Below, piece by piece: positions 9,151 through 16,925 of a stretch of DNA of 64,000 nt. Origin of the DNA: a virus; the IMG/VR virus record IMGVR_UViG_3300045988_080648; one strand, given 5' to 3'. Made by a program: the position numbers and the translations under genes. The stretch's first letter is position 1, and every line of letters starts with the position of its first letter. The notes beneath the pieces are model-generated. The model was not told the DNA's origin. It did no database searches and was given only the letters and a program-made list of their open reading frames with translations.

Positions 9151-11184
9151 ATGGAATACTTAGATTTTAGAAATCTTGTTACAGAAGCATGTAATAAGAT
9201 GATTAAAGAGAACAAGCATCTCTTTATTCTTGACACTCAAAAAGAGTTTTTATGGATGACTTATATGGAATCTTTCCCTGAAGGAGCCGTACGTCAAGAA
9301 TTTAACTGTGTAAATTGTAAACATTTCATTACTCGCTATGGAGCATTAGTCTCTGTGGATGAGAATTATAAAATACATTCTTATTGGGAGGATGTTCACG
9401 CTGAAGGAATGTTTGCTAAAGTTGTAGATAATATGTTACAAGTGCTTAAAAATACTAAAATTAGAAATGCATTTGTTACAGAAGAGACTACAATGGGTTG
9501 TAAATGTAATCAGCAGATACTACCTTCTAAAGAAATAATTACTTGGAACCATTTTTATGCTACTCCTACAAGTAATTTAATCATGGATAAGTCTCAGACT
9601 CCAACATTCCGTGCAGGTGCTAAATCTTCACATGATGTATGGTTAAGAACTTTATCTGAAATTAATTATGATTCTGTACAAACAGTATTAGACTTAATTG
9701 CAGATGATAATCTTTATAGAGGTGACACTTATCTGCGACAAGTAAGTGCTTTAAAGACTGCTCTTGATACAATAGAAAATAAGCACTTGGAAGGCTTTGA
9801 GTTGGATAATTATGCCTGGATATCTTCTTGTGTACTTCCTGATGCTGTAACACATATACTTAATAGTGCTATAGGTCAGCTTCTTAAAGATATAACTGAT
9901 ACTAACAATGTTGAAAGTTCAGTTAAGAAGTTTGAAGCTATGGTTGCTCCTTATAATTATAAGAGACCTAAGGGTATTATCACCAAAACTCAGGTAGAAA
10001 ATGCTTATAAAACTGTAGTAGAACTTGGCTATGAAGATTCTTTAGAGCGTCGTCATGCTAAAGTAGAAGATATATCTATTGAAGATGTTATCTTTGTAAA
10101 TAGAGAAACTCGTAAGAGAATGTTAGGAGGATTTGATTCTCTTATGAATGAAACTTCTAATACTAGTAAAACTGCTACAGATTTTGAGAAGACTGCTATC
10201 CCAACAACTATGGAAGAGTTTCTTAATAATATTGTTCCTAAGGCTAGTAAGCTTGAATTATTCTTTGACAATAAGTTAAATAATAATTTAGTAACTCTTA
10301 CTGCCCCAGTTAATAAAGAAGCTCCTTCTATGTTTAAATGGAATAATGGGTTTGCTTGGGCATATAATGGTAATATCTCTGATGCTATTAAGCAACGTGT
10401 CAAAGAGGTAGGAGGTAAGGTAGATGGTTATATGAGAATCTCTCTTCATTGGTATAATTACGATGATTTGGATTTACATATGATAAGTCCTTATGGACAT
10501 GTCTGCTATAGCAATAAACATGACTTACTTGATGTAGATATGAATGCTTGTGGAGGTAGTGCTTTAGAAGAACGTAATAATCCTAAGAAATATTCTCGTA
10601 ACGCTGTAGAAAATATCATTTTCTCAGGAATTCCTAAAGCAGGTACTTATAAAGTATTTGTTAACAACTTTGCTAAAGTTGAAAATATTGATTTAGGATT
10701 TGAAGTAGAAGTAGAGCTCAATGGAGTTATTCATACTTATGTGTATGATAAAGGCGTTCCTCATAAAAGAGATGTTTCAGTATTAGACTTTACTTCTAAT
10801 GGACATGAAGTTGTCTTTACTAAAGAGTATTTAGGTAGTACTACAGCATCTAAAGAAATTTGGGGAGTAAAGACTCAAAACTTTGTTGAAGTATCTGCTA
10901 TATGTTTATCTCCAAATTACTGGGGAAATAATAAAGTAGGTGCTAAGCACTATTTCTTTATGCTGAAGGATTGTAAGAATCCAGATGCTGTTCGTGGATA
11001 TTTTAATGAGTATCTTAAAGACGAACTCACTAAAAATCATAAGAGAGTATTTGAAGTATTAGCATCTAAAGCTTTGACTCCTTATGATGATAATCAGATG
11101 AGTGGTTTAGGATTTATAGCTACTTCTCGTAACCAAATTATGGTTAGAGTAGATTCAGGTAAAATTTATAAAGTAAATATTTAA
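9151..11184 (+). CDS. large hypothetical protein (677 aa). Cys-containing N-terminal region (CVNCKHF, GCKCNQQ) and a conserved-looking C-terminal domain. Function unknown.
   Basis: ORF track. Confidence 0.55.
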   Translation: MEYLDFRNLVTEACNKMIKENKHLFILDTQKEFLWMTYMESFPEGAVRQEFNCVNCKHFITRYGALVSVDENYKIHSYWEDVHAEGMFAKVVDNMLQVLKNTKIRNAFVTEETTMGCKCNQQILPSKEIITWNHFYATPTSNLIMDKSQTPTFRAGAKSSHDVWLRTLSEINYDSVQTVLDLIADDNLYRGDTYLRQVSALKTALDTIENKHLEGFELDNYAWISSCVLPDAVTHILNSAIGQLLKDITDTNNVESSVKKFEAMVAPYNYKRPKGIITKTQVENAYKTVVELGYEDSLERRHAKVEDISIEDVIFVNRETRKRMLGGFDSLMNETSNTSKTATDFEKTAIPTTMEEFLNNIVPKASKLELFFDNKLNNNLVTLTAPVNKEAPSMFKWNNGFAWAYNGNISDAIKQRVKEVGGKVDGYMRISLHWYNYDDLDLHMISPYGHVCYSNKHDLLDVDMNACGGSALEERNNPKKYSRNAVENIIFSGIPKAGTYKVFVNNFAKVENIDLGFEVEVELNGVIHTYVYDKGVPHKRDVSVLDFTSNGHEVVFTKEYLGSTTASKEIWGVKTQNFVEVSAICLSPNYWGNNKVGAKHYFFMLKDCKNPDAVRGYFNEYLKDELTKNHKRVFEVLASKALTPYDDNQMSGLGFIATSRNQIMVRVDSGKIYKVNI

Positions 11185-12223: not shown

Positions 12224-12379
12224 ATGAAGAAATTACTTGTACTTAGTGTATTATTTACACTCTTGAGTTGTTCTACTGGTTCAAATAATTCAGTAAATTC
12301 AACTTCAAATGATTCTGTTAATGTTGATACTACAGTAGTTGATACTACTGCTATTGATTCAACTGTATGTCCTGATTAA
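12224..12379 (+). CDS. small putative lipoprotein (51 aa; MKKLLVLSVLFTLLSCSTGSN, lipobox L-S-C)
   Basis: Hand translation. Signal peptide plus lipobox. Followed by the hairpin GTCCTGATTAATCAGGAC. Confidence 0.4.
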   Translation: MKKLLVLSVLFTLLSCSTGSNNSVNSTSNDSVNVDTTVVDTTAIDSTVCPD

Positions 12380-12390
12380 TCAGGACTTTC

Positions 12391-12471
12391 GTCTAGATAG
12401 CCAAGTGGTCAACGGCAGCAAGCTGTTAACTTGCCCCGAAAGGTTCCTAGGTTCGAATCCTAGTCTAGGCG
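12391..12471 (+). tRNA. tRNA with a type-II scaffold: long variable arm CCCGAAAGGTTC, Ser/Tyr-like D arm and T arm CTAGG-TTCGAAT-CCTAG. The anticodon loop CTGTTAA gives anticodon GTT (nominally Asn).
   Basis: Cloverleaf folded by hand. 7-bp acceptor stem GTCTAGA/TCTAGGC with one G-U pair. 3-bp D stem. Anticodon stem GCAAG/CTTGC. The variable arm is near-identical to the E. coli tRNA-Ser arm CGACCCGAAAGGGTTC. Confidence 0.5.
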
Positions 12472-12474
12472 CAT

Positions 12475-12545
12475 GGAGTATTAAGCCCTGTTGGTAAGGG
12501 AACTAGACTGTCACTCTAGTAAAACTAAGGGTCACTTATATTCCG
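12475..12545 (+). tRNA. degenerate tRNA-like element. Acceptor GGAGTAT/ATATTCC, D arm CCCT-GTTGGTA-AGGG and an anticodon arm CTAGA-CTGTCAC-TCTAG (GTC, Asp-like) are present. The T arm is vestigial.
   Basis: Hand folding. Three of the four arms are convincing; the T arm region AAAACTAAGGGTCACTT is not canonical. Confidence 0.2.
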
Positions 12546-12690
12546 CAAATAATGGAGAGCACCTAGCAGTTAACTAGGTAGTTGTTAGAGGTAGCGGTGG
12601 CGATCCACGAGTATGCCTGATAGCTCAATGTATTATTAGAATATGGTCATGATAGTTCGCCCGTCTAATGCCATATTCGCTTTTATTTAA

Positions 12691-12763
12691 GCTTCTATAG
12701 CACAATTGACAGTGCAGCATTTTTGTAAAATGCAGGTTATTGGTTTGAGTCCAATTAGAAGCT
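12691..12763 (+). tRNA. tRNA-Thr (anticodon TGT)
   Basis: Acceptor GCTTCTA/TAGAAGC (7 bp). D stem GCAC/GTGC. Anticodon stem GCATT/AATGC with loop TTTGTAA. T arm ATTGG-TTTGAGT-CCAAT, whose T loop is TTT rather than TTC. Confidence 0.6.
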
Positions 12764-12774
12764 CTTTATTTATA

Positions 12775-13351: not shown

Positions 13352-13425
13352 GGGGCGTCGGCTCAAGTGGTCAGCACCTGCTTTGCACGCAGGCATTCTT
13401 AGGAGTTCGAATCTCCTACGCTCCA
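13352..13425 (+). tRNA. tRNA-Ala (anticodon TGC)
   Basis: Acceptor GGGGCGT/ACGCTCC with the G3-U70 alanine identity pair. Anticodon arm CCTGC-TTTGCAC-GCAGG is identical to the E. coli tRNA-Ala arm. T arm AGGAG-TTCGAAT-CTCCT. Discriminator A. Confidence 0.75.
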
Positions 13426-13437
13426 CTATTAAACAAT

Positions 13438-13515
13438 GTGAGATTAGTGTAGTTGAAGGCGCACATCACACTTCCAATGTGAAGGCTTGCGTGGGTTTGA
13501 TTCCCACATCTCACA
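13438..13515 (+). tRNA. tRNA-Gly (anticodon TCC). 78 nt, slightly irregular, with extra nucleotides at the D/anticodon junction and in the variable region.
   Basis: Acceptor GTGAGAT/ATCTCAC (perfect 7 bp). Anticodon arm TCACA-CTTCCAA-TGTGA. T arm GTGGG-TTTGATT-CCCAC. Confidence 0.55.
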
Positions 13516-13914
13516 CTATGATAAAGCTCTAGAATACTAGTTACAGGAGCAACGTAACTTATAGGGTGCCTCTCAACGATGCATACTCGCCTATTAGGTG
13601 TCGTAGAACCTACGAACTGGAATGGTTTGATGTTTTTTGCATTCCTACAGAATCCTAAATAATAAAAATAGAGACCATGTCTCTGACAGGGACCATTCCT
13701 GGGATTCTTAATTTTTTAAACTCTCCTCCTAGATATTTTATAAGTTAAACTTTAAATTTGATTTATTATGATGAGAATTTTAAAAAGAACTTTAAAAGCA
13801 TTTAAGAAGGGTTGGATTTGGTATGTTACTCAGTATTCTAGATTATACATGCCTCCAATTATTTAATCTTATTATTTAATTTGTAAGTACCAAAGGGGTA
13901 CTTACTGATGTTCG

Positions 13915-16115: not shown

Positions 16116-16925
16116 ATGCAACAATTAAATTTAGTACGTCTAGAAGATAGTGATATTAAGTATTCTATCTCTAGATTTCCAGATGGGGAAGTACAAATTT
16201 CCTTAGGAGAATTCAGTCATAAGGAGCAAGTATTAGTAAAATGTAGAGTTACTAATGCTGAAGACTTATTTATACTTATGCAAGTTTTAGATATTCTTGA
16301 TAGACATGAAGTTCTATATAAATTAAATATCTATTACTTAATGAGTATGAGAATGGATCGAATAATGGATTTCAATAGACCATTCACTTTAAAAATAGTT
16401 TTAAATATATTAAAAAATTGTAATGCAGAGACTATTGAAATTCTAGAACCTCATTCTGATGTTTATTATGATCCTAGATTTGGAGTTAAATTCATGCCTC
16501 TTTATAGCGAAAAGAATCCGTCTAATAATACTTGGGCAGAATTTCAATTAGTTTTTCCAGATGCCGGAGCTGTAAAGAGAAATGAATTCAGATATAATCG
16601 CGTAGGAATTACTTGTAGTAAAATTCGAGATTTAACTACTGGAATAATCTTAGAGATTAAAATAGATAATCCTGAAAATATACAGGATAAACCTCTGTTA
16701 ATTCTTGATGATTTATGTGATGGTGGTGGAACCTTCTGTGGTATTGCTAAAGCATTTAATGCTTTAGGTATTCCTAAAGAGCGTTTAAATATTGCAGTTA
16801 CTCATATGGTAAATCCTAAGGGTATAAAGAATTTATCAGAAAACTTTAATCACGTATGGTTTACTAACTCTTATAAAGACTGGGATAATCTTCCTGAGAA
16901 TGTTACAATGTTTAAGGTTATTTAA
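16116..16925 (+). CDS. prs: ribose-phosphate pyrophosphokinase-like protein (PRPP synthetase / phosphoribosyltransferase fold)
   Basis: ORF track. PRPP-binding motif LLILDDLCDGGGTF, matching the PRTase hhhhDDhh.TGGT signature. N-terminal FPDGE box. Confidence 0.65.
   Translation: MQQLNLVRLEDSDIKYSISRFPDGEVQISLGEFSHKEQVLVKCRVTNAEDLFILMQVLDILDRHEVLYKLNIYYLMSMRMDRIMDFNRPFTLKIVLNILKNCNAETIEILEPHSDVYYDPRFGVKFMPLYSEKNPSNNTWAEFQLVFPDAGAVKRNEFRYNRVGITCSKIRDLTTGIILEIKIDNPENIQDKPLLILDDLCDGGGTFCGIAKAFNALGIPKERLNIAVTHMVNPKGIKNLSENFNHVWFTNSYKDWDNLPENVTMFKVI

Follow-up and report, generated by a model that had tools for sequence, protein, structure and literature searches.

Within a 64,000-nucleotide (nt) stretch of viral DNA (IMG/VR record IMGVR_UViG_3300045988_080648; "the window" means this whole stretch), positions 12391..12471 of the + strand encode a tRNA that combines a long variable arm with the asparagine anticodon GUU. 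Its determinants indicate that it probably receives asparagine from the host enzyme and reads the codons AAU and AAC. On this reading the long arm most likely has no effect on which amino acid is inserted.

ARAGORN called the gene as tRNA-Asn(gtt) of 82 nt (12391-12472), and the Rfam covariance model RF00005 matched 12391-12471 over its full length (model positions 1-71 of 71) with 51.8 bits, the gathering score being 29 and the E value 3e-8 for the whole window. The alignment to the model contains a 10-nt insertion in the variable region. A first-pass annotation had placed here a tRNA with a class-II scaffold and a GUU anticodon; both programs and direct reading of the sequence bear this out, and the RF00005 match yielded neither a class-I tRNA-Asn fold nor a different anticodon. 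The gene measures 81 nt up to the discriminator and does not encode the CCA end, the next letters being CAU. The 5′ strand of the acceptor stem, GUCUAGA (12391..12397), pairs with the 3′ strand UCUAGGC (12464..12470) and is followed by U8 and A9; this 7-base-pair (bp) stem and the 5-bp stem of the T arm, CUAGG-UUCGAAU-CCUAG (12447..12463), make a 7/5 branch. The D arm (12400..12416) is of the class-II type, with a 3-bp stem GCC/GGC (G10-C25, C11-G24 and C12-G23), unpaired A13 and C22, and the enlarged loop AGUGGUCAA. The anticodon arm GCAAG-CUGUUAA-CUUGC (12418..12434), with U33 and A37, was identified by ARAGORN and Rfam and exposes GUU at 12425-12427, a reading on which the two programs and the letters themselves agree. 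Between this arm and the T arm lies the variable region CCCGAAAGGUUC (12435..12446), to which RNAalifold assigns a 2-bp stem (C-G, C-G), a GAAA cap and then an unpaired UUC. Its 12 nt form the stem-loop of at least 10 nt that is characteristic of class II. The length of this arm and the 3-bp D stem, both remarked upon in the first pass, can be read directly in the sequence. The discriminator is G73 (12471), which is an asparagine identity element (PMC9976931). All these parts lie on the + strand.

The minimum-free-energy fold of the lone 82-nt sequence is not a cloverleaf (z = -1.5), and the fold was settled by covariation instead. Pattern scans of viral contigs provided a family of 13 distinct sequences of the 82-nt tRNA-Asn, and the covariation alignment comprised 14 homologues, 22 base pairs and 500 shuffles. 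Twelve of the 22 pairs have changed on both sides, 99.3% of the pair cells hold standard pairs, none of the 500 shuffles equalled the pairing of the family, and sliding the partners abolished the signal. Compensatory changes fall in all four main stems: six of the seven acceptor pairs and three of the five T-stem pairs have changed on both sides, pair 11-24 of the D stem goes from C-G to U-A, and two pairs of the anticodon stem covary. The acceptor stems are highly divergent (GUCUAGA, GCUUAGG, GUAACCG), the D, anticodon and T stems vary too, and no broken stem occurs among the 13 distinct sequences. RNAalifold recovered independently the cloverleaf together with the 2-bp variable stem. Unchanging in the family are the anticodon loop CUGUUAA, the variable region, G1-C72 and G73, while the D loop varies at two central positions only; the variable region is invariant also in L099 and L138, two loci that were found without using it as a search key. 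Because compensated stems stand beside these fixed loops, variable region, G1-C72 and G73, the gene is under purifying selection and belongs to an old lineage, being neither a fresh mutant nor a relic. A BLAST search of the tRNA-Asn against E. coli genomes gave no match, and the family-specific pattern found none among 185,579 species genomes.

Judged by sequence comparison, the body of this tRNA is of the tRNA-Tyr type, because its variable region matches that of real tRNA-Tyr, because it aligns with tRNA-Tyr free of gaps and because its arm, with an unpaired UUC, is shorter than that of tRNA-Ser. The 12 letters of CCCGAAAGGUUC recur in true tRNA-Tyr(GUA) with A73 from Furfurilactobacillus, a Lactobacillus genome, Gemella and several phages, and 17 bacterial tRNA-Tyr loci have the identical variable region. 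Gap-free alignment gave 75% identity with the tRNA-Tyr of phage L164 and 69% with that of Furfurilactobacillus; identity with E. coli tyrU was 59%, with one gap. These class-II tRNA-Tyr share with the window tRNA the 7-bp acceptor stem, U8 and A9, the 3-bp D stem with unpaired 13 and 22, the D loop AGYGGYCAA, G1-C72 and a variable region of 12-13 nt built from a C, a short hairpin and UUC. They differ from it at exactly the positions that separate asparagine from tyrosine identity, the window tRNA having GUU where they have GUA and G73 where they have A73. The first-pass annotation, which called the scaffold Ser/Tyr-like, had likened the arm to that of E. coli tRNA-Ser. The arm it quoted is real, since all 5426 E. 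coli genomes contain, at 100% identity, a tRNA-Ser(UGA) sequence that includes CGACCCGAAAGGGTTC, and the long-arm scaffold stands, but the likeness to tRNA-Ser does not: the architecture, in which one C on the 5′ side precedes a short hairpin and UUC stays unpaired on the 3′ side, is that of tRNA-Tyr. The E. coli serT arm has 16 nt and pairs its UU inside a 5-bp stem, whereas the 12 nt of the window leave UUC unpaired. Among the sampled phage tRNAs the variable region measures 14-25 nt in tRNA-Ser (barring one 4-nt outlier call) and 10-17 nt in tRNA-Tyr, and the window tRNA-Asn has neither the arm length and orientation nor the anticodon of a serine tRNA.

Descent from tRNA-Tyr is less certain than the Tyr-type body itself, and we do not claim a tyrosine origin as proven. 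In a nearest-neighbour comparison with approximately 1850 phage tRNAs, whose reference sets were chosen by shared strings, tRNA-Tyr and tRNA-Asn reached the same identity (maxima 0.73-0.76) once the variable region, the T loop and the anticodon had been removed, so that the two ancestries are not separable by this means. The earlier idea of a recently mutated tyrosine or serine tRNA thus retains its Tyr-type body but loses its recency, against which stand the compensatory changes in the four main stems and a G73 of the family's own, where nearly all the sampled tRNA-Tyr have A73. The anticodon loop does lie one base from that of tRNA-Tyr, as had been proposed, the tRNA-Tyr genes of the relatives having CUGUAAA. 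Other long-arm tRNA-Asn have the same D arm with arms of 16-18 nt (L207, L213, L225, L271). As a separate observation, CCCGAAAGGUUC is found on class-II-like tRNAs with a UUC (Glu) anticodon in unrelated viral contigs (L153, L155, L156, L157, L161, L163, L166, L171); their discriminator is A or U, some have C33, and they are another case of a non-canonical anticodon on a Tyr-type body.

The anticodon GUU together with G73 is sufficient to transplant asparagine identity into another tRNA (PMC9976931). In the window tRNA the asparagine set is complete, G34, U35, U36 and G73, and it is invariant in the 14 homologues. The window tRNA has its loop CUGUUAA and its G73 in common with class-I tRNA-Asn(GUU), and both presumably decode AAU and AAC; many class-I tRNA-Asn of phages have the same anticodon arm, GCAAG-CUGUUAA-CUUGC. 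Unlike it, class-I tRNA-Asn have a 4-bp D stem, a variable loop of 4-5 nt and a total length of 72-77 nt, against 3 bp, 12 nt and 81 nt here.

The locus itself provides a natural exchange of the two forms. A survey anchored on a protein, the neighbouring 677-amino-acid open reading frame (ORF), and not on the tRNA, found 16 close relatives; 13 of them carry the long-arm tRNA-Asn at the locus. In relative L317 a 74-nt class-I tRNA-Asn(GUU) with G73 (3250-3323) occupies exactly the same position between flanks that are identical on both sides, and the neighbouring 677-amino-acid protein is 96% identical to that of the window; the two loci constitute a natural pair of long-arm and short-arm alleles. 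The remaining relatives of the survey, L314 and L324, have at the tRNA-Asn locus chimeras with the tRNA-Tyr of the array. In L314 (9674-9758) the 5′ part of the long-arm tRNA-Asn continues, at the shared D-loop string AAGTGGTCAA, into the 3′ part of tRNA-Tyr, the intervening DNA being deleted, and in L324 (10248-10322) a class-I tRNA-Asn 5′ part is fused to the tRNA-Tyr 3′ part within the T arm. The stems are broken in both chimeras. Recombination takes place among the tRNA genes of the array. The fetched loci that carry the long-arm version yielded no call of a further tRNA-Asn. Asparagine accounts for 7.0% of the window codons; of every 1000 codons, 61 are AAT and 9 are AAC.

Taking these features together, we propose that the tRNA would be transcribed along with its neighbours in the array, trimmed, and completed with CCA by host enzymes. 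The host asparaginyl-tRNA synthetase (AsnRS) would then charge it through G34-U35-U36 and G73, following established identity rules, and the charged tRNA would decode AAU and AAC, which this phage of 29% G+C uses heavily. The gene might have arisen from a Tyr-type tRNA by a change of A36 to U in the anticodon and of A73 to G at the discriminator, or else tRNA genes of the array might have recombined to form it. In either case the window tRNA would be one lineage among many long-arm tRNA-Asn genes of phages.

The extent of that group was estimated by searching viral contigs for CUGUUAA with GGUUCGAAUCC behind it at the distance expected of a long arm, and by running ARAGORN over the matches listed. 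At least 113 phage tRNA-Asn(GUU) among those matches have variable regions of 11-20 nt, with very diverse sequences and at least three body types. G73 is present in 96 of 116 distinct long-arm asparagine sequences, a figure that covers all those sampled, the family of the window included. A type with a 13-nt arm occurs in 291 GenBank genomes of T5-like phages, where it is annotated plainly as tRNA-Asn. These T5-like tRNAs (Salmonella phage 5, AJ604531; Escherichia phage SP15) resemble the window tRNA in GUU, G73 and a GAAA-capped hairpin in the 13-nt variable region; they are unlike it in their class-I-like 4-bp D stem with a small loop, in G2-C71 and in an encoded CCA, and their arm was probably acquired independently. 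Class-II tRNA-Asn in phages is not described in the literature searched, a negative limited to that literature, and the widespread pattern appears to be undescribed.

Asparagine is not the only isotype concerned. At loci that were not chosen for long arms, about 5% of the tRNAs of class-I isotypes have a variable region of at least 10 nt. Long-arm versions have discriminator U in 14 of 14 tRNA-Cys and 11 of 13 tRNA-Thr, G in five of five tRNA-Trp, and A in 14 of 15 tRNA-Ile, 13 of 16 tRNA-Met and six of seven tRNA-Lys; for comparison, tRNA-Tyr of the sample have A in 104 of 110 and tRNA-Ser have G in 65 of 102. Because the long-arm versions keep the discriminator typical of the isotype of their anticodon, the pattern argues for retention of the cognate identity rather than for a common Ser/Tyr/Leu identity. 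Arrays with long-arm Cys, Ile, Met, Thr, Lys, Asp, Trp and His tRNAs are seen, for example, in L006, L012, L035, L226, L256 and L269. In the sampled viral loci such copies often adjoin a copy of normal length, the discriminator of the isotype being kept, and Phe and Val yielded no such copy. Among 22 tRNAs of class-I isotypes in a very small bacterial sample there was no long arm. Two GenBank notes bear on function: in Salmonella phage 5 (AJ604531; L311 3001-3083, 83 nt) a long-arm tRNA-Asn with the anticodon CUA is recorded as an amber suppressor, and in phage T5 (L310 6953-7030) a class-I tRNA-Asn with the anticodon CUA is recorded as not being one. Because its CUA version suppresses amber, the long-arm body of phage 5 works in translation, as indirect evidence goes, and the note suggests that this body can be charged without an asparagine anticodon.

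Several points weigh against charging with asparagine and ordinary decoding. Charging by AsnRS is deduced from identity rules that were established mainly in E. coli. Class IIb synthetases approach the tRNA from the side of the variable loop, where a hairpin might hinder AsnRS. A long arm with G73 is also what seryl-tRNA synthetase (SerRS) uses, and, on the phage 5 note, a long-arm asparagine body can be charged without its own anticodon. The 2-bp variable stem never varies and has therefore no covariation support, and the role in codon supply is a correlation only. Moreover, G1-C72 is an anti-determinant for the amidotransferase (PMC9976931), a consideration that applies if the host makes Asn-tRNA by indirect amidation of Asp-tRNA-Asn.

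Of the other readings, one leaves the decoding untouched and would add to it a selective rationale: the tRNA would still insert asparagine, its arm would block the tRNA-cleaving defence nucleases of the host, and asparagine decoding would survive the loss of host tRNA-Asn. It is compatible with the ordinary function and we regard it as a tentative possibility. The PARIS nuclease AriB targets host tRNA-Asn(GUU) and cuts it between positions 40 and 41 in the anticodon stem (PMC12409363), not far in sequence from the start of the variable arm at position 44, and T5 tRNA-Lys, tRNA-Thr and tRNA-Asn jointly neutralise PARIS (PMC12409363). The number and diversity of long-arm tRNA-Asn genes in phages would fit such a role, as would the isotypes that bear long arms with their identity bases kept, the lack of a match to the window's long-arm type in the 185,579 species genomes, and the 0 of 22 in the very small bacterial sample; the bacterial side of the comparison covers these 22 tRNAs and the family-specific pattern. 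The T5 tRNAs (PMC12409363, PMC10264068) are likewise phage copies of host tRNAs, tRNA-Asn(GUU) included, with sequences that differ from those of the host. However, they are reported to escape through substitutions in the anticodon stem-loop, with no role reported for the variable arm, and since the rescue experiments used T5's own tRNA-Asn, a normal class-I molecule, escape from AriB needs no arm. Sister phage L317 also does without one. In a broader and somewhat more doubtful version, phages would repeatedly turn short-arm tRNAs (Asn above all, and Cys, Ile, Met, Thr, Lys, Asp and Trp) into long-arm ones with their synthetase identity kept, the arm being a general counter-defence device that protects the anticodon stem against host nucleases and leaves charging and decoding intact; the window tRNA would be one instance of it, on a Tyr-type body.

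Readings in which the tRNA does not insert asparagine have less in their favour. Charging by SerRS, through the long arm and G73 that are the core of serine identity, or by tyrosyl-tRNA synthetase (TyrRS), through the Tyr-type body and variable region with G34 and U35, would cause asparagine codons to be read partly as serine or tyrosine. The amber suppression by a related long-arm asparagine body implies that some synthetase can charge it without the asparagine anticodon. The nev-tRNAs of nematodes offer a precedent, for they reportedly carry Gly or Ile anticodons and are said to be charged with leucine, the class-II body overriding the anticodon. They are described as class-II tRNAs with anticodons for neither Leu nor Ser (Hamashima et al. 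2012, PMC3333845); they are eukaryotic, and the identity elements of the window tRNA, in contrast, match its anticodon. The allo-tRNAs, predicted serine acceptors with 8/4 or 9/3 branches and Sec-like D arms (Mukai et al. 2017, PMC5389517), are the other precedent, but the 7/5 branch, the Tyr-type D arm and the full asparagine identity set do not allow the window tRNA to be classed with them. The critical determinants of tRNA-Tyr are A73, which is conserved, and U35, whereas G73 acts as an anti-determinant towards both TyrRS and leucyl-tRNA synthetase (LeuRS); in bacteria, the pairs G1-C72 and G2-C71 are conserved among tRNA-Ser, which depend on their long arm (PMC9976931). In the family, pair 2-71 is U-G, C-G or U-A and never G-C, and the 12-nt arm is shorter than that of every long-arm phage tRNA-Ser sampled (minimum 14 nt). 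The conversion of tRNA-Tyr into a serine acceptor, according to Himeno and co-workers in 1990, reportedly required a lengthened arm besides G73, which also counts against this reading. Finally, the tRNA is the only asparagine tRNA of the fetched loci, is exchangeable with a class-I tRNA-Asn, and would be very costly if 7% of all codons were misread. The mis-charging suggested in the first pass consequently finds no support in the invariant asparagine set, in G73 as a barrier to TyrRS and LeuRS, in the missing serine features or in the class-I swap of L317, and we consider it quite improbable.

A decoy for an anticodon nuclease was the remaining suggestion of the first pass. Such a decoy, or a tRNA-like RNA that takes no part in translation and sequesters this nuclease or some different factor of the host, is very improbable. 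The authors of the PARIS study raise the competitive inhibition by over-expressed viral tRNAs (PMC12409363), and T5-type arrays hold tRNA-like stable RNAs as well. However, the elements needed for translation are all conserved (the 7/5 branch, G18-G19, the T loop UUCGAAU, U33, A37 and G73), a complete AsnRS identity set would be superfluous in a decoy and its replacement by a normal tRNA-Asn would not be expected, and a translating, nuclease-resistant substitute fits the published work on phage tRNAs better. That the gene is a tRNA-Tyr pseudogene in decay, or that the tRNA finders produced an artefact, is extremely improbable. The array does contain decayed and chimeric genes, namely the tRNA-Asp of the window and the fusions of L314 and L324, but the Rfam score of 51.8 bits, the 12 compensated pairs and the 13 distinct sequences free of broken stems speak against it, and the covariation result contradicts it.

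The tRNA-Asn heads a small array on the + strand that continues with a decayed tRNA-Asp and with tRNA-Thr, tRNA-Ala and tRNA-Gly. The tRNA-Asp(GUC) (12476..12544) lacks 6 nt of the T arm when compared with the intact 78-nt copies of relatives and reaches just 18.1 bits with the Rfam tRNA model; L013 has the same deletion. ARAGORN and Rfam both found tRNA-Thr(UGU) at 12691..12764, tRNA-Ala(UGC), with a 7-nt variable loop, at 13352..13426, and tRNA-Gly(UCC), with an 8-nt variable loop and only 33.7 bits, at 13438..13516; moderately enlarged variable loops, as in the last two, are common in this array. Four nucleotides 5′ of the tRNA-Asn, a scan for terminator-like structures found the conserved hairpin GUCCUGAUUAAUCAGGAC (12369..12386, + strand). 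It contains the stop codon of a small ORF (12224-12379) and is identical in relatives, even where the locus carries other tRNA alleles; it may serve as a terminator or in processing. An element of 140 nt (approximately 12545-12690, + strand) separates the remnant of tRNA-Asp from tRNA-Thr and is strongly conserved in relatives. Its hairpin CCUAG-CAGUUAA-CUAGG has a loop mimicking the asparagine anticodon loop, which in L009 is exactly CUGUUAA. The element gave no Rfam match and no covariation, being too conserved to show any, and by analogy with T5 arrays it may be a stable tRNA-like RNA. A 61-nt insert with a long hairpin (GCCUCUU...AAGAGGC) separates tRNA-Asn from tRNA-Asp in L001 (approximately 3983-4050), L009 and L025, and is not present in the window.

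The + strand of the window holds nearly all the long ORFs, and replication functions are encoded: helicases, primase, exonucleases, NrdD, ligase and homing endonucleases. The window is 94% identical to MT835492.1, an unannotated 121.6-kb phage record from human faeces, which is the only GenBank phage with the window tRNA-Asn; in IMG/VR its close relatives are represented by contigs of 94-181 kb. Membership in Crassvirales was not accepted, the sole link being an 83-nt match of 81% identity to phage cr116_1, and no family was assigned. The anchor of the survey, the 677-amino-acid ORF (9151-11184, + strand), lies downstream of an SPFH/flotillin-like ORF (7535-9088, + strand) and has no sequence match in Pfam, NCBIfam or PDB. 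Full-length homologues of about 37% identity were found in 531 GenBank phage genomes, whose hosts are very different (Salmonella, Klebsiella, Bacillus, Caulobacter, Pseudomonas and others). It is a widespread phage protein to which sequence comparison assigns no function, and since the anchoring ORF is present in so many diverse phages, synteny with L164 is weak evidence of kinship. A few kb from the array, an ORF (16116-16925, + strand) resembles ribose-phosphate diphosphokinase (phosphoribosyl pyrophosphate synthetase), with all matches below the curated cut-offs, and is possibly a gene for nucleotide or nicotinamide adenine dinucleotide salvage.

For this window alone the conclusion is modest, a phage tRNA-Asn most likely doing an ordinary job: it is most likely ordinary in its function and unusual in its form. 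Reviews assign long variable arms to leucine, serine, bacterial tyrosine and selenocysteine tRNAs, where the arm helps the synthetases to discriminate (PMC9976931 among them). A Tyr-type arm on a tRNA that is under selection and has a complete asparagine set, together with at least 100 other long-arm tRNA-Asn of phages, challenges this textbook rule. If the tRNA is charged with asparagine as predicted, AsnRS, EF-Tu and the ribosome would tolerate the arm on a non-canonical isotype. Something in the biology of phages seems to favour such arms, and the T5-like carriers and the natural long-arm and short-arm alleles make the question testable.

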